Shown: positions 3,550 to 30,933 of the stretch, in pieces
Layout of the letters: every line of letters begins with the position of its first letter
How positions within the stretch are numbered: position 1 is the stretch's first letter
DNA from: an uncultured Candidatus Saccharibacteria bacterium
GTDB lineage: Bacteria; Patescibacteriota; Minisyncoccia; Phycocordibacterales; CAIZLB01
DNA: 64,000 nucleotides
Assembly (NCBI GenBank): GCA_964417855.1
Contig: CAYQJB010000001.1
Span: 102,709 to 166,708, forward strand
Direction: 5' to 3'
Translations under genes and position numbers: made by a program
Notes under the pieces: model-generated
Told to the model about the DNA's origin: nothing
Seen by the model: only the letters and a program-made list of their open reading frames with translations
Database searches by the model: none

Positions 3550-4671
3550 TTATGACACCTCCTGAAGTCTTCTTAGCGCAATCCCAACAGCAACAGCAAA
3601 TTCTAGCCCCGCATTCTTCAATACCCCCTCCAAAAAAGCAGGTGCCTCAACTTTACTGAATGGATCTCCAATCTCTACGGTTGTTTGAAAGTTTGCTGCG
3701 GCCATTTCTACAATCCCCTTCATAGCAACACCACCTCCTGTTAAAATAACCTTTGAGACAGTTTTATTAAATCTTTTTTGGTAACTCAAAAGTACACTAT
3801 TTGCTTCTGAAAAAATATAATCCATAGTAAGAGAAATAATTTCATATATTTTTTGCTCATCAGCTGGAGCTAGGGTTCCAAGAGACCTTTTCATATGCTC
3901 AGCACTATCAAAAGTAACATTCATTCCCTTAGAGATACTAGTGCTAACCTCTTGAGATCCTTTATTTATTATATGCGATGATTTAATTATACCTCTTTCA
4001 ATCATATAAATTTTTGTAGCCGCTGCGCCCATGTCAAAAATCATCACAGGCTCAATTTCCCCAGAAATCAAAGCTCTTGTACTACTGAACATCTCAATTT
4101 CAAAAAAACCAGTATCAAGCCCAGCTTGATTTACAATAGAACTATAATTACTGAGAACTTCATTATGAATTGATACAACCAAAACCTGTACCTTCTGTGG
4201 CACGTTTGTTTTTTCACCCTCTTCATCTTCTGCGTCCACAAAATCTAAATCACCATGTTCATTAGGGATTACCCACCAATCCATAGTCACTTCACTTATT
4301 GGAACAGGGATATATTTTCTTGCCTCAAGGGGAATCATTTCTTTTAGCTCCGCATCACTCACTTTTGGTAACTCAATAAGGGAAACAAGACTAGATTTAA
4401 ATGGAATTGAAACTCCAGAAATAAGACTTGTGACATTCGCTTCCTTAATAATATCTTTTATAGCCTCTGCAATTTTCTCAGCAGGCAGGACTGCTACCTG
4501 CCCAACCTGAAGACCTGCATATGGAGCAAGGGCAATTTCTCCATATGTTTCAAGTACGGCCTTGCCACGATGCTTTTTTAATTGCACAACCTTGATAGAA
4601 GAAGAGCCAATATCAACACCAATGACGCTTTGGTTGTTTTCTTGGAAAATTCTTTGGAGAAAATTTGACAT
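3550..4671 (-). CDS. pilM: Type IV pilus assembly protein PilM (actin-like ATPase)
   Basis: VIGVDIGSSSIKVVQL N-terminal actin-fold motif and C-terminal ILTGGGVAMKG motif. Confidence 0.85.
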   Translation of the reverse strand: MSNFLQRIFQENNQSVIGVDIGSSSIKVVQLKKHRGKAVLETYGEIALAPYAGLQVGQVAVLPAEKIAEAIKDIIKEANVTSLISGVSIPFKSSLVSLIELPKVSDAELKEMIPLEARKYIPVPISEVTMDWWVIPNEHGDLDFVDAEDEEGEKTNVPQKVQVLVVSIHNEVLSNYSSIVNQAGLDTGFFEIEMFSSTRALISGEIEPVMIFDMGAAATKIYMIERGIIKSSHIINKGSQEVSTSISKGMNVTFDSAEHMKRSLGTLAPADEQKIYEIISLTMDYIFSEANSVLLSYQKRFNKTVSKVILTGGGVAMKGIVEMAAANFQTTVEIGDPFSKVEAPAFLEGVLKNAGLEFAVAVGIALRRLQEVS

Positions 4672-4789
4672 AGGTGTGTTATGTAAATGTATACAGTGTT
4701 GTCTTTACTATTTATACAATAAATAGCCATACAGACATTCTACTGTGCGTAACATTATTATTAATAGTATACACCATAAAAAATAAAAT

Positions 4790-5479
4790 ATGAACAATAA
4801 ACAAATTAATTGTGAAGAAAAAGAAGACAAAAGAGAAAATAGCAAAATTAAATCTATTTTTTGCTATGGAGACGCCGATGTAAAGAAAATGATATGGTCA
4901 TTTAAGACCGATAAGACATTTTATAAATCGCAAGACAGCCTTATTCCACTAAGGGCTGTAGCTAAAGAACTTGTGAATGAAAATTTGCAAAATATCATTA
5001 TTTGCGTGCCTTCATCCTCATTTTGGCATAATAAAAAAAGTTTTGACCATATGCACTTATTTATAAGGAATTTAAGAAGATTTTTTGAAGGAATTTGTAA
5101 AAACAAATCATTTACAATCACAGATAAGCCGGTTTGCTCAAACTTTGAATATATCCCCTATTCAATAATTCCTCATTTGAACAAGGATTTACAGAAGGGA
5201 TTAAATAAAAATGAGCGCAGTATACAAACAGTCGGAGCATATCAATTAAGTTATTATTTTAAATTCCGTATAAAATTACTCCTGAAAAAAATAACTAGTC
5301 AAACCAATCAAACAGATCAAAACAAGAGTCCTATATTGCAGATTTTAATTATGGACGATGTGATGACAACAGGCTCAACAATAAAAGAGTGCCGTAGGGT
5401 TGTATATGAATACTTACAAAAAATAGAGGCGGATGAAGTGGTGCATGTAAACTGTTTAACACTAGCTTATGAAGCCTAA
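4790..5479 (+). CDS. comFC: ComFC-like phosphoribosyltransferase-domain competence protein
   Basis: C-terminal PRTase motif ILIMDDVMTTGSTI. Divergent from the pilus operon. Start may be an internal Met (for example 4892). Confidence 0.65.
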   Translation: MNNKQINCEEKEDKRENSKIKSIFCYGDADVKKMIWSFKTDKTFYKSQDSLIPLRAVAKELVNENLQNIIICVPSSSFWHNKKSFDHMHLFIRNLRRFFEGICKNKSFTITDKPVCSNFEYIPYSIIPHLNKDLQKGLNKNERSIQTVGAYQLSYYFKFRIKLLLKKITSQTNQTDQNKSPILQILIMDDVMTTGSTIKECRRVVYEYLQKIEADEVVHVNCLTLAYEA

Positions 5480-21740: not shown

Positions 21741-21803
21741 ATAAGAACTAAATTTACCACAATATACATTGACAAAATCCTAAAATTATGTATTATATGG
21801 TTC

Positions 21804-22243
21804 CCATTAGATGGGTTCTCAGGACGCCACGTCCCATAACCGACTCACGTTAGTTATTTGGCTTCTGCAGATTGCGTAAAGACCAGCTAGACGATACCTA
21901 GGCTCCAGCAGGACGAGCCTAAAGCTTTAACCGAAAAGCTGCCTAGGTGTTGTCAATCTTTCAAAATGAAGAATTGGCTAAAAGAGAGGTGTATGTTCTG
22001 CTCATGCCGTGCATCAGACAATCTAAAACACCCACAAATGTATTCAGTTTGTTTGTTTGACTGAATGCAAGAACGCAATAGGAATAGTTTACGTCACAAT
22101 GAGATTTAGGCGGAACTAAAACCATATTGTTGCGGAAAGTTTGCTGACAACTGATTTGACTCTGCCCTCATCTGGTCACTTCAGGTCTCAGTAATTCTCT
22201 TTTAAGGTCTCTTCGCCACTATGGCGGGGAGACCTATTTTTTT
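21804..22243 (+). ncRNA. Candidate structured ncRNA (~440 nt) between ftsH and smpB. Sigma70-like promoter (TTGACA 21769, TATTAT about 21791) and intrinsic terminator (22206..22234 + T7). Class unassigned
   Basis: 570 bp lack any ORF of 60 aa or more in six frames. Multiple nested helices (cctaggc...gcctagg, ggctc...gagcc). Terminator ggtctcttcgcc acta tggcggggagacc then tattttttt. Confidence 0.3.
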
Positions 22244-22348
22244 ACCTAAACAATCCTTAAATACCAACGCCTCGTCATTAATACTGCTTTCAAACTGTTT
22301 GGATATGATATAATACCAAAGCCCCATCAGACACCAAGGTCAATCAAA

Positions 22349-22841: not shown

Positions 22842-23239
22842 GGGGATGACATGCTTCGACACATGTCTGTATTCTTTATGTGCGTAACCGAGTGTCCTAG
22901 AATCTCGTTAAACTTCAGGAAACCTTAGATGCAAAAGCCCAAAAAGCAGTTGTTTCTCCATTTTTTGGAGTAAACAGCTTTGCATTTGCAACGGTTAGAG
23001 CCTAGCTCGCCCTCTTGCAACGTTCTTGTCTACTCTTTCTGTAGGTAGATAAAGGGCGCAATATATACAGGATAGGTTTGTAGAGTTTCTTAGACTACAA
23101 TCCAAAATCAATAAGATCGGTGACGCTGCGTTTTGATACTTTTATAGTATCGTCACTTAAAACCAAAAAATTGTCTACGTTACGTAGACTCATAAAGAAA
23201 CAACGTGTGCACGCGGGTTCAATTCCCGCCATCTCCACC
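22842..23239 (+). ncRNA. ssrA: tmRNA (ssrA), standard one-piece
   Basis: 5' end GGGGATGACATGCTTCGACA (compare E. coli GGGGCUGAUUCUGGAUUCGACG). 3' tRNA-like end GCGGGTTCAATTCCCGCCATCTCCACC with G3:U70 pair (compare GCGGGUUCAACUCCCGCCAGCUCCACCA). Candidate resume codon GCA at about 22930 preceded by UAG-AU as in E. coli UAG-UC-GCA. Putative tag reading frame ends ...AFATVRA-UAG. Confidence 0.85.
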
Positions 23240-23410
23240 GACAAACATAAGCCACCAAGCGTAAGCGAGGTGGTTTTATGTTTGGCGGATAAAGATGACC
23301 GCCAGGAATTGAAAGGCGGAAGAAAAGCTCTGGGAGAGGTTTTCTGAGCCGGGGTCGCGAGTACTTAGCGAAGACGAGCCATGCGAAGTCTGAGCTTAGT
23401 AACTCGTGAC

Positions 23411-23429
23411 CAATTCCCGCCATCTCCAC
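23411..23429 (+). repeat. 19-nt perfect direct repeat of the tmRNA 3' end (caattcccgccatctccac; first copy 23220..23238). att-like footprint
   Basis: Exact duplicate 173 nt downstream of the tmRNA gene end, followed by terminator 23433..23461 + T5. Confidence 0.7.
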
Positions 23430-23432
23430 AAA

Positions 23433-23466
23433 AAAATCTAACCGCCGAAAGGCGGTTAGATTTTTG
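23433..23466 (+). terminator. Intrinsic terminator (tctaaccgcc gaaa ggcggttaga + TTTTT) after the ssrA region
   Basis: Perfect 10-bp stem, GAAA loop, T-run. Confidence 0.7.
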
Positions 23467-23516
23467 TAGTATGCTGCCGAACGCAGCCAGAGAATCGCAA
23501 CATAACTTTGATTAAA

Positions 23517-24296
23517 TTAATTTAAGTATAAAGTTTTAGTTTCTTTATTTAAAATATAATAAAGCATTCTTTTGTCATTTTCTCTAAGGTACCCCAATTT
23601 ATTAAATAGAACTGAATAATTTCCAAAACTTGTATTATTCAACCAAACTGTCGCAGTAACATCAAGAGAGGTTCCATTGGCTATAAAACAGTATTGATTG
23701 CCTTCAAAGGGAATATTTTTCTTTGAAGTAGAGCAATTAACTTTGGATGATTGTATCCCCTTAAATTCCCCTCCTTTAATTGAATAAGAAATTCCAGTCA
23801 GACCCTTAGTTGAATCTGTTGTGGTCATTGGGATGTAAAAATCATCCCCTTTTGCAGTAACACGCAGACGAATTTCATAACCTCCATATCCAGGATATAT
23901 TGTTTGCATTAAGTTTGGTTCTTCAACGACAAGGTTTGGATTGTTGTCTTGGACAGCCTCTGTGTAAGCTGGTTTTACTATTTGCTTGTCTTCAGTGGGA
24001 GACACAACTGTTGTCTTCTTATTTACAGATGTATTTGTATTAACATTAGATTTCGTAGTGGCTTTAATATTAGACGTAGATGAAGTCGACCTTTCCATGG
24101 TCTTATTATCATCTTTTAATTTATTTTCCAACTCTGCAATTTTATTTTCTAATAAAGAATTTTTTATCATCATGTCTTTTTGATAATCTCCATTATTTTT
24201 CCAACCAAAAATGTTTCCAAAATAAACAAGTGCCCCACAAATAATTAAAATGGTGACAACAATGGTTATTAGATAAATCATGAATTTATTTTTCAT
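23517..24296 (-). CDS. Membrane-anchored hypothetical protein (TM, coiled coil, Ser/Thr/Asn-rich linker, C-terminal beta-rich domain)
   Basis: 259-aa ORF with N-terminal TM helix. No recognised family. Confidence 0.45.
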   Translation of the reverse strand: MKNKFMIYLITIVVTILIICGALVYFGNIFGWKNNGDYQKDMMIKNSLLENKIAELENKLKDDNKTMERSTSSTSNIKATTKSNVNTNTSVNKKTTVVSPTEDKQIVKPAYTEAVQDNNPNLVVEEPNLMQTIYPGYGGYEIRLRVTAKGDDFYIPMTTTDSTKGLTGISYSIKGGEFKGIQSSKVNCSTSKKNIPFEGNQYCFIANGTSLDVTATVWLNNTSFGNYSVLFNKLGYLRENDKRMLYYILNKETKTLYLN

Positions 24297-24846
24297 ACTA
24301 TAAGATTAAACTAAACTATAAAATTTACAAGTTGATTGTCCTAAAATATCATTACCTTAGCCTACTAGTGCGAGTTTAATTCCCCTATTGTAATACCTAA
24401 AATACAAAATACTACCTACAAACATAACTGTTATTTAACTGTTGTTGCATTAAAATCGCCTCAGACGCCTCAAATACCAAAGAACGTAGTTGGTTCCAAC
24501 TTTCAGATACAATGTCCACAAAATTAAGGAACGAAGTGACTATAATTTTGTAGGACTCATCCGAGCACAAGCGAGGAGGAGTATCACAAAAAAATAGTTA
24601 AAACCCGTGCAAGCGGGTTTTTCCTTTACACAATAATTACACCGTAGAGGAAAACCGTACATATTTTACAAACCCCACATTGACAAATCTCAATTAAATG
24701 CTTTAATAATACTTGAATCAGCAGATCTTTGAGTGACGCATGGGGGGGGTGGAATTTGACGGTATCTTTGAGGATATTTATATGTCTTTAAAGTTGCCGT
24801 CAAACAAAACAGCAATCAACAACAAACCATTGTCACACATACAAAA

Positions 24847-25233
24847 ATGAAAATATCGACGTTCCTCCTAATTGTCATAAGCGCAATTTTAATCAAGGCA
24901 TTCACCCTACACATAGAATCCTCAAAAATTATATATGAACAACTCCGGTATTCCGAAGTTCAAACGGACAGGGCGCTAGAAAACCTTACTGCTTCAAACC
25001 CAACATTGACCAACGATTACTTGGTGTCAATGAAGGAATTGTCTAGTCAGATTAAGAAGGCTAATGATTTTAATCGCAAGACCAATGCAATTTTTGGCAG
25101 CACATTCTTCTTTCTTTTTCTACTTTTATACAATCTCGCTGTGCTCCCTATCTTTCGATGGAGGCGGCATCAGAGAAGAGTAAGACGTTTACTTGAAAGA
25201 CAACATGCAACAGCACAGTCCGCAAGCGCGTAA
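24847..25233 (+). CDS. Small membrane protein (two TM segments), hypothetical
   Basis: 128 aa. Promoter-like TTGACA/TAATAAT upstream. Terminator hairpin 25236..25268. Confidence 0.4.
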   Translation: MKISTFLLIVISAILIKAFTLHIESSKIIYEQLRYSEVQTDRALENLTASNPTLTNDYLVSMKELSSQIKKANDFNRKTNAIFGSTFFFLFLLLYNLAVLPIFRWRRHQRRVRRLLERQHATAQSASA

Positions 25234-25351
25234 TTACCCCCCTGCATCATTCTGATGCAGGGGGGTTTATTGACACCTCTACCCTTCCGCTATAAGCTAT
25301 CATCAGCTAAACAAACTGCCAGCGACAGTACAAAACAGAACCTTTAAAATC

Positions 25352-25714
25352 ATGGACTCATTCAATGACCGTCTACTTTATTATATTGGTTTACTTTCCA
25401 ATGCTGACGACTCATACTCCCCCATTCAAATTAAATCACTAGCACTCGGCGTGTTTGTCACCGAAGACCGTCGTAATAGAGTTACTATCTTCTTTGATTC
25501 AGAAGAGTGGGAACTTGTGGACAATGGACAACAACAATGGATTACAGCAGGTAAAGTAAGTAAATATTATGGTATTGGAGCATTATGTTTTAATGGACAT
25601 GAAATGAACTTCTCTAATGTTTGTCGTTGGGCGAAAAAGAGCCTCCGTCCAATTTTTACAGGCACATGGAACCCCAAAGATACCCAAGCTAATATCCGTC
25701 TAGCGTTGAGCTAA
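25352..25714 (+). CDS. Hypothetical protein
   Basis: 120-aa ORF, balanced composition. Downstream long-range stem aaaatcccc/gggggatttt. Confidence 0.4.
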   Translation: MDSFNDRLLYYIGLLSNADDSYSPIQIKSLALGVFVTEDRRNRVTIFFDSEEWELVDNGQQQWITAGKVSKYYGIGALCFNGHEMNFSNVCRWAKKSLRPIFTGTWNPKDTQANIRLALS

Positions 25715-25824
25715 AAATCCCCTGCAACCAACAAAGTCCCCTATGGCCTAATTGGCTACGGGGGATTTTATTTTAGATAATTACACAACAATACAACATG
25801 CTATACTAATCATAATATAAAAAT

Positions 25825-26112
25825 ATGGCTCCAAAATTCTCTTCCAAAAAACTAACCAGAAGTCACACTACCCTAACAGATGCAGCTGGTGTAATTGTTA
25901 AGCATGCATCTCAAATGCCGGAGGTTTCAAAGATAAGTTTGGGAATTATCAAACCAATTTCTGTTGGAAAACAGAGAATAAAATTCCTCCCCATAACTGG
26001 TGGTGTAAAATCTATAATTCGAGGAAACTCATCGATTCAAGAAATTTTTATATATACAAAAGAACCTAAAACTACAATCAAAGTTTTAACGGATTATTTT
26101 AATAGTAAGTAA
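25825..26112 (+). CDS. Hypothetical protein
   Basis: 95-aa ORF. No family recognised. Confidence 0.35.
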   Translation: MAPKFSSKKLTRSHTTLTDAAGVIVKHASQMPEVSKISLGIIKPISVGKQRIKFLPITGGVKSIIRGNSSIQEIFIYTKEPKTTIKVLTDYFNSK

Positions 26113-26194
26113 GGATGTTGGGTAAGAATTAAAAAAATCTGTCCATCAAAAAATACTTGACACTTTTTTAGATAGTAGTAATATTCAAATTACC

Positions 26195-26560
26195 ACAAAA
26201 CGTGCTAGCGCACACAGTGGCTGTAGGAGTCTCCCTTAAGCTATGGGTCCAAACCCCATCAGACAAACGAGATGAATAGATGTGCCAAGTGGCCCCCGAA
26301 AGGGCAACCACCACAAAAGCAGTCAAACAGCCAATCAAGTGGTCACGGGCAACGGACGCAAACCAACATGAGGGATTCAATCATCCAATGGTAAACGTAA
26401 CGCCCCAAGTTTTCTGTCCGGAGTGTGTTCCTCCCCGTGCTGGGTCAAGCAAGCTTTGTTCTTGGCGATCAACAGCTTAATCCAGCACGGGCGAGTTTCC
26501 CACTCTATCAGTCTGACTAGTTCAGACTCACGCCGTCCAACCAATAGGTTGGCGGTTTTT
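26195..26560 (+). ncRNA. Candidate GC-rich structured ncRNA (about 365 nt) upstream of infC, with sigma70-like promoter (TTGACA 26157, TAATAT about 26180) and intrinsic terminator (ccaacc aata ggttgg cggtttttt). Class unassigned (possible L20-responsive infC leader and/or independent sRNA)
   Basis: About 50% GC against a 35% background. No ORF of 60 aa or more except short overlapping ones. Helices cccgtgctgg...ccagcacggg and GNRA-like gcccccgaaagggc. Confidence 0.4.
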
Positions 26561-26678
26561 TATTACCAGTTTTGTCACCAGATTTTTATCACTAGTTTTA
26601 TTACTAGAAACAACGTTCTTTTGACAATGTATATAGCCAAACTTTAAATCAAGTGCTATACTGCTTTTAATACAAAAT

Positions 26679-27197
26679 ATGGCAACACAAACAACACACG
26701 TAAGAATCAATCATCAAATACGCGCCTCAGAACTGCGTATGTTAGGACCTGAAGGAGAAAACTTTGGAATAATGAAATTTGACGACGCCATGGCCAAAGC
26801 CAGGGAGCTTGGAATGGATTTGATAGAGATATCCCCTAGAGCCAACCCACCAGTTGCAAAAATCATGGATTATGGTAAATTTCAGTACGACGAAAGCAAA
26901 AAACAGAAGCAGGCTAAAGCCAATGCAAAGAATTTTGAAGTTAAGAGTTTACAGGTAAAAATAGGCACAGGAGAGCATGATCTAGCTTTAAAGGCTAAGA
27001 AAGCCTCTGAATGGCTTGCGGAAGGTCATAGAATCAAGTTTGACCTCTTCCTACCTGGTAGAACTAAGTACCTAGATGAGAAGTTCTTGAAAGAGAGAAT
27101 GGACCGTTTACTACACTTATTAAGCACTGACTACAAAATAGCAGATCCAGCTAAGAAAAGTCCAAAGGGTTTAACAATCATTTTGGAGAAGGCATAG
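26679..27197 (+). CDS. infC: Translation initiation factor IF-3
   Basis: RINHQIRASELRMLGPEGENFGIM and the C-terminal domain match IF-3. Followed by rpmI-rplT. Confidence 0.9.
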   Translation: MATQTTHVRINHQIRASELRMLGPEGENFGIMKFDDAMAKARELGMDLIEISPRANPPVAKIMDYGKFQYDESKKQKQAKANAKNFEVKSLQVKIGTGEHDLALKAKKASEWLAEGHRIKFDLFLPGRTKYLDEKFLKERMDRLLHLLSTDYKIADPAKKSPKGLTIILEKA

Positions 27198-27355
27198 TTG
27201 GTACTTTGCAGGTTTTATCCTCGCCTACCTTGTGATAGAGGGCTGTGGGCTCCTTACTCCACCTGTACATCAATCACGTTCGTCTTAAATTATCAGTTAG
27301 TAATAAATGAATCAGTCTATAGTACCTAGTATTAAGTCTAGTTCAAATCAAAAAT

Positions 27356-27541
27356 ATGAAGACAAATAAGTCCTATTCAAAACGTCTTAAGGTCACTAAA
27401 AATGGTAAAATCATTTCAAGAGCCAAGGGACAAAACCACTTCAATTCAAAAAACAGTGGTAGACAGGGAATCGCAAAAGGTCGTACAGTAGAATTTGTTA
27501 TGAGCACTCGTGATAGACGTCGTTTCTTGGCGCAATCATAA
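27356..27541 (+). CDS. rpmI: 50S ribosomal protein L35
   Basis: 61-aa basic protein in the conserved infC-rpmI-rplT context. Confidence 0.8.
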   Translation: MKTNKSYSKRLKVTKNGKIISRAKGQNHFNSKNSGRQGIAKGRTVEFVMSTRDRRRFLAQS

Positions 27542-27585
27542 TTTCGCATAATCTTAAAAGATTTTAAAAACATAATCAAAAATAT

Positions 27586-27978
27586 ATGGTACGTATAAAA
27601 AAAGGTGTTACAGCTCTTAAAACAAGAAGATATATTCTTAAAGCAGCTAAGGGATTCAGAGGACCACGTAAGAGTAAGGAGAAGCTAGCAAATGAACAAC
27701 TTGTTCATTCATACGCAGCAGCTTTTGCTCACAGAAGAGACAAAAAGGGAGATTTCAGACGTTTATGGAATGTTAGAATAAACGCAGCAATCAGACCTTT
27801 CGGAGTTTCTTACAGTAAATTCATAGGAATGCTAAAGGCACAAAACATTGAGCTAGACAGAAAGACTCTTTCTGAAATGGCCCAAAATGCTCCAGCTTCA
27901 TTTGAAAGAGTTGCAAAGCAAGTTCTAGCTAAGGCTGGAACTGAGGCAAAGGAGGTAGTAGAGATATTAGAGGCGTAA
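27586..27978 (+). CDS. rplT: 50S ribosomal protein L20
   Basis: MVRIKKGVTALKTRRYILKAAKGFRGPRK L20 N-terminal motif. Confidence 0.9.
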   Translation: MVRIKKGVTALKTRRYILKAAKGFRGPRKSKEKLANEQLVHSYAAAFAHRRDKKGDFRRLWNVRINAAIRPFGVSYSKFIGMLKAQNIELDRKTLSEMAQNAPASFERVAKQVLAKAGTEAKEVVEILEA

Positions 27979-28003
27979 GTTTCAAAATAACTAAATAAAA
28001 AAA

Positions 28004-30586: not shown

Positions 30587-30933
30587 AATGATATTAGGCT
30601 TATAATAACATTATTATTTCTGCTAATCTATTTTTCGACAGAAACACAACACCCCTTGCTTTTAGACAAGGGGTGTAATGTGAGATGCTGCAGGTGTCGT
30701 CCCTAGAGATAAACTAGGTGGGTGTTCTACAGTTAAAGCTGAAAGCCTTAAGTGACGCGAACTCCCTGATTAAAAAATCAAGCTAAGTCGACAAATGCGG
30801 CACCTCACCCATCATTATATTCTAATTAACAGTTTTGTAACTATTTACAAAACGATAAAATCTTAGCCTATTTCTGCCGTATATTTCTGCCGTATATTAC
30901 AGGCTCATTAACAAGAATCCGTTTCTATAATAT

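Follow-up and report, generated by a model that had tools for sequence, protein, structure and literature searches.

A predicted structured non-coding RNA gene upstream of infC, probably of a new family, in one clade of Paceibacteria

We analysed a 64-kb stretch of DNA (hereafter the window) from a member of the Patescibacteria, or Candidate Phyla Radiation (CPR), with attention to the region immediately upstream of infC, where an earlier note on the same DNA had placed a promoter- and terminator-bounded candidate gene for a structured non-coding RNA (ncRNA). The window matches the metagenome-assembled genome GCA_037127815.1 (contig JBAXXP010000001.1), and its nearest relatives bear Paceibacteria/Parcubacteria names. 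Between a DUF2103 gene (25825-26112) and infC (26679-27197, + strand), a 566-nt stretch holds no credible open reading frame (ORF). infC encodes initiation factor 3 (IF3), as identified from its ORF with the Pfam domains IF3_N and IF3_C, and is the first gene of infC-rpmI-rplT. On the + strand, the gap contains in order a promoter, a GC-rich body of ~370 nt, an intrinsic terminator and a second promoter, followed by infC; we refer to the first promoter, the body and the terminator as the unit. GC content is 0.51 in 26200-26499, compared with 0.26-0.36 in the flanks and 0.368 in the whole window, matching the figure of about 50% in an AT-rich genome given in the earlier note, and this gap and the region of the transfer-messenger RNA (tmRNA) are the two most GC-rich non-ORF gaps in the 64 kb. 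Rfam 15 identified the tmRNA (22842-23240, +) and two tRNAs in the window, and nothing in this gap. Taken together, the locus and its relatives suggest that the unit is probably a gene in its own right, encoding a structured ncRNA of a new family that is restricted to one Paceibacteria clade.

The promoter of the RNA (26157-26184, +) consists of a -35 hexamer, TTGACA (26157-26162), and a -10 hexamer, TAATAT (26179-26184); it scored 10/12 in a consensus scan and was the top match within 25000-28000. These hexamers are the ones first noticed, but the tool counts 16 nt between them where 17 nt had been given. The predicted RNA of about 370 nt would extend from 26189 to 26560 (+), with its start placed from the -10 hexamer and a conserved 5' end, AUUACCAC (26189-26196), and its end at the U-run of the terminator. 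That terminator, found by a terminator scan at 26532-26560 (+), reads GCCG.CCAACC-AAUA-GGUUGG.CGGU followed by the U-run. Its core, CCAACC-AATA-GGTTGG, lies at 26537-26552 and is followed by CGG and T6 ending at 26560, so that the distance of about 120 nt to infC reported earlier is 119 nt as counted to the ATG at 26679. A separate infC promoter, TAGCCA-17-TATACT with an upstream TG (26634-26662, +), lies outside the RNA and marks its boundary, ending 17 nt before the infC start.

The body is non-coding. ORFs in the window unit are short and overlapping (66-74 aa only), as had been observed before, and are unconserved in the orthologs, where the longest + strand ORFs of 28-70 aa differ in place, frame and strand. 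Similarity between units measured by tblastx was equal in all six frames, and we found no similarity of the unit to any protein in any frame.

Searches of 80 species-level infC loci with the unit sequence, by blastn and nhmmer, returned identical copies only. In the three nearest species representatives (InfC 91-93% identical), the corresponding site nevertheless holds a promoter, a GC-rich body (390-470 nt), a terminator and the same infC promoter. Further lineages were reached via the upstream DUF2103 protein (in our locus numbering L167, L169/L170, L171/L172, L173, L174, L175 and L178). The orthologous set thus comprises the window and 10 further lineages of one Paceibacteria clade, that is 11 lineages and 12 units, two of them in L178. 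Across the set the unit measures 213-468 nt with a GC content of 0.42-0.54, which is 0.05-0.15 above that of each genome. Of the 11 other orthologous units, 10 have TTGAC[A/T] with a TAnnAT-type -10 at the equivalent place; the promoter of L009, TTGTGA-18-CATAAT, is weaker and was missed by the pattern scan. The promoter/5' block CTTGACAC..ATAGTAGTAnTATTC..ATTACCAC is common to the window, L167 and L169. Every orthologous unit is closed by a GC-rich hairpin with U5-7 and is followed, 12-134 nt on, by ATAGCCAA-N13-TGCTATACT, in which the hexamers are invariant across the 11 lineages and the spacer sequence varies, as expected of a true infC promoter. The unit remains beside infC despite upstream gene insertions in L167, L173 and L178. 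L009 (385 nt) and L169 (213 nt) are close relatives with identical infC promoters, yet about 180 nt of the central RNA present in L009 are missing from L169. L178 carries two complete tandem promoter-RNA-terminator units upstream of infC (4489-4752 and 4801-5030); they have no mutual sequence similarity but are built alike, with nested stems of 11 bp and 14 bp and fold z of -3.2 and -8.1. We regard the observation as above chance because 10 other lineages have promoter, body and terminator at this very place, and this recurrence strengthens the reading of the earlier note, which is borne out in its essentials. Homology of the window unit with the others is supported by synteny, by similarity of the promoter and 5' end to L167 and L169, and by the common architecture.

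Relatives with InfC at ≤79% identity marked the edge of this distribution: the unit was not found upstream of infC, and ordinary protein genes or unrelated hairpins stood there instead. A metagenome scan with InfC gave, among the matches listed, only relatives at ≤79% identity and no intermediates. DUF2103 homologs likewise fall from 100% to ≤73% identity, with no close intermediate in the collections searched. As far as the data reach, the unit appears confined to one Paceibacteria clade.

Within that clade the primary sequence of the unit is saturated. Between the window and L173, identity is 85% for the tmRNA, 86% for infC and 73% for the DUF2103 gene, compared with 56% for the unit, for which the shuffled baseline is 50-55%. 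The units shared no k-mers beyond chance, no invariant nucleotides were detected, and when units from different subgroups were aligned with MAFFT, in full or by their 3' domains, the helices came out misaligned. Lack of conservation had been named as something that would speak against an RNA gene; what we found is divided, with position, promoter, terminator and fold kept and the nucleotides themselves not. A reading of the unit as a repeat array or guide RNA was rejected by repeat analysis.

The window RNA folds more stably than shuffled sequences (minimum free energy [MFE] z -4.2), and z lay between -4.0 and -8.1 in eight of the nine units tested, with only -3.2 in L178 unit 1. Folding does not discriminate between the strands, the minus strand reaching z -4.3, and the + strand was assigned from the promoter, the terminator and G.U pairs. 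The stem that we designate LH contains 8 G.U/U.G pairs that would become A.C mismatches if read on the minus strand, and the promoter scan found no minus-strand promoter at the locus; the + strand is thus favoured for the RNA. LH is a perfect 12-bp stem formed by the inverted repeat CCCGUGCUGGGU (26434-26445) and AUCCAGCACGGG (26480-26491), spanning 26434-26491 (+) and enclosing a variable apex (26446-26479). It is the long-range helix that the earlier note had given as cccgtgctgg/ccagcacggg, and it is real. It forms the core of a rod (26420-26506, +) whose MFE structure has an outer helix, GGAGUG 26420-26425 with CACUCU 26501-26506 and CUC 26431-26433 with GAG 26493-26495. An equivalent perfect stem of 11-17 bp occurs in 12/12 units, with an LH span of 53-102 nt and a variable apex, and an outer helix of 4-9 bp surrounds LH in every ortholog, its register between subgroups having been compared by eye. 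Long-range stems of at least 11 bp were present in 10/10 units and in 14/600 shuffles.

On either side of the rod the architecture is looser. The 5' domain (26189-26419, +), predicted from a single-sequence fold, has several hairpins, among them the GNRA-capped CCC-GAAA-GGG (26295-26304), and a U-rich motif, AAGUUUUCU (26407-26416). It is the most variable part of the RNA and is mostly missing from L169. Most orthologs likewise have GNRA-capped hairpins and an AAAUUUYC motif. The 3' halves follow a common design in which an AAAUUUYC-type motif (in most units) and one or two small hairpins, often GNRA-capped, precede the rod. An A/C-rich linker, often with CCAAAC, follows the rod and can supply the 3' strand of the outer helix. 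In the window, the MFE structure places a small hairpin, SH, at 26510-26528 (+; AGUCUGA-CUAGU-UCAGACU). A hairpin at the SH position, between the A/C-rich linker and the terminator, was seen in seven of the ten folded units and is missing from L169, L173, L174 and both L178 units. Readings of the internal loops as kink turns or as CsrA sites (GGA) were judged by eye and dropped.

Comparative evidence for the fold is centred on LH. The covariation check proposed in the earlier note was run on ten units, whose LH arms we set in register by their CCCG...CGGG and GCAU...GUGC cores. The input was edited blocks consisting of a 6-nt flank, an 11-nt arm, the first 4 nt of the apex, an 11-nt arm and a 6-nt flank, which MAFFT left ungapped. 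In these blocks 98.2% of LH cells were paired (108/110), compared with 74.5% in shuffles, and compensatory changes were present in 11/11 pairs; for neither measure did any of 500 shuffles reach as high. The covariation score was 0.853 versus 0.308 in shuffles, and sliding the partners by 1-3 columns reduced pairing to only 29-48%. L009, L167 and L169 form a subgroup alignable by sequence, and there U-A↔C-G and C-G↔U-A exchanges could be read off directly. Selection keeps the LH stem paired. The outer helix and the other hairpins were assessed by recurrence and by inspection by eye.

The conserved transcription signals, the lack of coding capacity and a helix held by compensatory change make it very probable that the unit is a real, selected and independently transcribed structured ncRNA; that it also founds a new family restricted to this clade is somewhat less certain, though still probable. 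Several observations weigh against this interpretation. Promoter matches of at least 10/12 number about 56 in the window on both strands, so that sites of this quality are common in such AT-rich DNA, and both the ends and the abundance of the RNA are predictions. The helices of the 5' domain in the window come from a single sequence and have no comparative support. Between subgroups, the LH register was taken from the predicted stem of each sequence itself, which inflates both the percent paired and the contrast with the slid control. Covariance models also carried little across subgroups. A model built from the single L167 sequence found L009 at E 2e-4, L173 weakly, and no member of another subgroup. 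A second covariance model, built from L175, L008 and L174 on LH pairs only and with the window sequence excluded, did match the window at exactly 26434-26491 (+), although with a score of just 6.5 bits (E 2.8 in a search of the 64 kb on both strands, 128 kb in all; rank 26/52). Scaled to the 566-nt syntenic gap, that match corresponds to about 0.025 expected matches, which is suggestive only. An 11-bp stem with a variable apex of 30-100 nt carries too little information for a 128-kb search, and cross-subgroup homology is not shown statistically by the RNA model.

No described RNA family matches the unit. At the Rfam 15 gathering score, nothing was found on the unit in the window or in the loci of 20 relatives. 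A search at E ≤ 10, made with permissive filters over 26000-26800 of the window and extended to all orthologous units, gave no match either, and it covered the models that the earlier note had suggested running (RNase P, L20_leader, 6S and the signal recognition particle [SRP]). We found no published account of such an RNA in literature searches. We propose a new family because nothing in Rfam 15 reached E ≤ 10 for any ortholog; the kind itself is familiar, being that of orphan, independently transcribed, structured bacterial ncRNAs. An identity as a highly diverged housekeeping RNA, either an RNase P RNA of CPR type escaping default Rfam thresholds or an SRP RNA, is nonetheless consistent with the GNRA hairpins and high GC content typical of large folded RNAs, and 370 nt fits RNase P RNA. 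The RNase P version, which the earlier note had raised, needed serious testing, since default thresholds can miss the RNase P RNAs of CPR bacteria: in 10 of 35 circular CPR genomes they went undetected at such thresholds, and were still found by RF00010 at low scores, with many conserved features kept (Lui et al. 2021, PMC8172020). In 12 units of 11 lineages, neither the RNase P models (RF00010 and RF00011) nor the SRP models matched at E ≤ 10. The P4 strands CR-I and CR-V (GGAAAGUCCGGGC and ACAGAACCCGGCUUA, or the type B form) were absent within 3 mismatches from 10/10 units and shorter words occurred at chance, in agreement with the failure to find the P4 consensus in the first inspection; the resemblance of GGUAAACG to the J11/12 GGUAA element suggested at that time is at chance level. 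An RNase P RNA would also be hard to reconcile with lengths of 213-468 nt and a dispensable central ~180 nt (L009 vs L169), with a tandem duplicate in L178, with the absence of the unit upstream of infC where InfC identity is ≤79%, and with divergence far faster than that of tmRNA, the unit standing at 56%, about its shuffled baseline, in the same genome pair in which tmRNA is 85% identical. For SRP RNA, the 17-nt core of helix 8, a helix characterised by a GGAA tetraloop and AGCA-type loops, was absent within 3 mismatches from 10/10 units, a 10-nt core occurred in 1/10 compared with 1.9 by chance, and the apex is the most variable part of the rod. Both identities were rejected, and a housekeeping RNA of either type is extremely unlikely. 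An RNA that binds RNA polymerase in the manner of 6S or Ms1 RNA, which would be a special case of acting by shape, shares with the unit a poorly conserved sequence, a conserved rod-like structure and a strong promoter of its own; the duplication recalls the paralogs 6S-1/6S-2, and in the minimal forms (L169 and L178 unit 2) the closing helix spans ~145-170 nt. The Rfam 6S model (RF00013) matched no unit, the predicted folds show no large two-sided central bubble and only a small internal loop next to LH, and the long forms add 200+ nt of 5' hairpins that are unpaired with the 3' end. The 6S RNA reading was rejected on the model result and the missing bubble, and a function of this kind in a looser sense appears very unlikely. 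A weak 6S-like match, which also speaks against it, was found elsewhere in L009, at 4697-4826 (-) downstream of the operon (18.6 bits, E 3.6); the syntenic 347-nt gap in the window (30587-30933) gave no 6S match at E ≤ 10.

The position of the unit raises a different possibility, that it is a cis-acting leader or attenuator of infC-rpmI-rplT in which L20 (or L35 or IF3) binding to the rod would set termination or read-through at 26560. In 11/11 lineages infC is the next gene downstream of the unit and reads in the same direction, even after upstream insertions, and the order of promoter, structured RNA, terminator and infC resembles that of the Bacillus subtilis leader, in which a single promoter drives a 201-nt leader with a sequence-conserved 5' operator mimicking 23S H40/H41, and the operator pairs with the 5' side of the terminator to form the antiterminator (Choonee et al. 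2007, PMC1865079). Here, unlike in B. subtilis with its one promoter, a separate infC promoter with invariant hexamers lies past the terminator in 11/11 lineages, at a distance (12-134 nt) and across a sequence that are unconserved. Shuffled sequences gave duplexes to the 5' arm of the terminator as good as the best ones observed (z -0.25 on average over the 12 units, +1.1 in the window), and the positions of the latter were inconsistent. For all the high conservation of L20 and of its rRNA site, the unit holds no operator conserved in sequence; L20_leader (RF00558) gave no match at E ≤ 10 in the window or any ortholog; and two complete tandem units precede infC in L178. A better operator candidate is the infC-rpmI spacer, whose first ~100 nt (27199-27300) are 86-92% identical in relatives where the unit is saturated, conserved as the site of a conserved ribosomal protein should be. 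It has no Rfam match, and by analogy with the position of the Escherichia coli site it is likely to be an operator for L20/L35 control of rpmI-rplT. The L20-responsive attenuator proposed in the earlier note did not survive these comparisons. We rejected a leader of the Firmicute L20 type for its lack of a conserved operator and antiterminator and the presence of the separate infC promoter, and consider any leader or attenuator function unlikely. The extremely fast sequence turnover, the large insertions and deletions, the duplication, the restriction to one clade and the location in a variable island between tmRNA and infC would all suit a transcribed but functionless spacer, or the decaying remnant of a mobile element or pseudogene with incidental hairpins. 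Such a remnant would not be expected to retain its promoter and terminator in 11/11 lineages while its body is saturated, to keep LH paired through compensatory changes in 108/110 cells, far above shuffles, or to stay 0.05-0.15 above each genome in GC content, and it shows no protein similarity in any frame; we find this explanation quite unlikely. Type I toxin mRNAs are also 200-400 nt long, highly structured and bounded by promoter and terminator, and an mRNA for such a small, fast-evolving peptide would share the outward features of the unit. None of the ORFs keeps its position, frame or strand among the units, however, the longest + strand ORFs (28-70 aa) lie in unrelated places, those of the window are hydrophilic and lack a Shine-Dalgarno sequence, and the scan gave no minus-strand promoter from which an antitoxin RNA could be transcribed. 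A small-protein function was rejected on the lack of a conserved ORF and has only a minimal chance of being correct.

An independent structured ncRNA gene would work as follows. Transcription would start about 5-8 nt past the sigma70-type promoter and stop at the terminator, giving, to judge by these signals, an RNA of ~370 nt (213-468 nt in the relatives). Its 3' half would form a long rod of outer helix, internal loop, perfect 11-17 bp stem and variable apex, with the stem supported by covariation and the rest by recurrence, followed by the A/C-rich linker, in most units by a small hairpin, and last by the terminator; its 5' half would be a variable set of hairpins, some GNRA-capped, that have been lost or expanded among relatives. 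The separate infC promoter, the variable spacing, the lack of an antiterminator and the tandem units of L178 suggest that the gene is independent of infC. Tentatively, the RNA may act in trans through its shape, for example by protein binding or titration, and not as an infC leader or as a small RNA pairing with a fixed target. This proposal, which we think somewhat doubtful, is drawn from the keeping of the fold without a single-stranded seed, from modules that are lost (L169) or duplicated (L178) and from the lack of attenuator logic; that it is reached by elimination counts against it. DUF2103 was considered as a partner protein and dropped, because no homolog has a solved structure and because other genes have come to lie between the DUF2103 gene and the unit in L167, L173 and L178. 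The constant place of the unit near smpB/tmRNA and infC-rpmI-rplT hints, speculatively, at a link to translation or at co-regulation, and it may equally reflect stable gene order only. A bolder possibility, for which we see little likelihood, is a new class of abundant, large, tertiary-structured RNA in an episymbiotic CPR lineage, encoded next to translation genes (smpB-tmRNA and infC-rpmI-rplT) and serving as a ribonucleoprotein scaffold or as a substitute for a missing regulatory RNA (6S-like or ribosome-associated). The fast turnover and tandem duplication could alternatively point to a role in an arms race, such as a decoy against phage or host factors.

Several other features were observed around the unit. 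The 5' untranslated region of infC is very short (~17 nt) and lacks an obvious Shine-Dalgarno sequence in the window and the orthologs. Between the RNA terminator and the infC promoter, the window lineage alone carries a short tandem repeat, TTTTATYACYAG x3.5 (26558-26601), which may be an UP-element-like or regulator-binding stretch; L175 has in the corresponding interval (2575-2707) an A/C-rich stretch with AAAACCATGCACC repeats. The stretch from tmRNA to infC (23517-26112) is a variable island that encodes proteins of 259, 128 and 120 aa with no known function in the window, a ParE/Phd toxin-antitoxin pair in L173, a 196-202 aa ORF in both L167 and L173, and a methyltransferase and DUF4406 in L178. 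Closer to the tmRNA, its 3'-end motif AATTCCCGCCATCTCCAC recurs at 23412-23429 (region 22842-23516). The next 276 nt after the tmRNA have a very strong fold (z -8.2) with a terminator at their end, and may represent either a long tail of the tmRNA precursor or the trace left by a former insertion of an element into ssrA. Further upstream, the 608-nt gap between ftsH (-) and smpB (+) at 21741-22348 has a fold z of -4.9 and a TTGACA-16-TATTAT at 21769, and may hold another structured RNA or a long smpB leader.

The ncRNAs of Patescibacteria/CPR are almost unexplored, and a gene of 200-470 nt with a near-consensus promoter is unlikely to be idle in genomes so small. The unit offers a testable candidate, with a covariation-supported helix, natural deletion (L169) and duplication (L178) variants and 11 lineages for alignment. 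It also indicates that a GC-rich island bounded by promoter and terminator is not automatically an RNase P RNA or a ribosomal-protein leader in these organisms, and that families evolving this fast escape sequence searches and simple covariance models, so that synteny is needed to follow them. Should the RNA act on translation or transcription, it would be a lineage-specific regulator in organisms thought to be minimally regulated.

The unit can be compared with several known systems. Like the L20 leader (RF00558; PMC1865079), it is a structured element upstream of infC-rpmI-rplT, on the same strand, with an intrinsic terminator; it differs in length (213-468 nt versus ~140-200 nt), in lacking the operator domain, the antiterminator pairing and a model match, and in having the infC promoter past the terminator. 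The CPR RNase P RNAs (PMC8172020) resemble it in their CPR hosts, in a size near 370 nt and in escaping default Rfam thresholds, but they keep a conserved core, whereas the unit has no CR-I/CR-V, diverges far faster than tmRNA, has a dispensable middle and occurs as a tandem copy in L178. With 6S RNA and Ms1 it has in common a conserved structure with drifting sequence, a promoter of its own and paralogs, and it departs from them in having no predicted central bubble, in its extra 5' domains and in going unmatched by the 6S model. The remaining comparison is with raiA, OLE, ROOL and GOLLD, which we take to be representative of orphan large structured bacterial ncRNAs. The unit matches none of their Rfam models, is limited to one Paceibacteria clade, and has far lower sequence conservation and a very plastic length. 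It is nevertheless like them in being an independently transcribed GC-rich island of several hundred nucleotides in an AT-rich genome, with multiple helices, covariation support (in the unit, for LH) and GNRA-capped hairpins as the points of likeness in fold.

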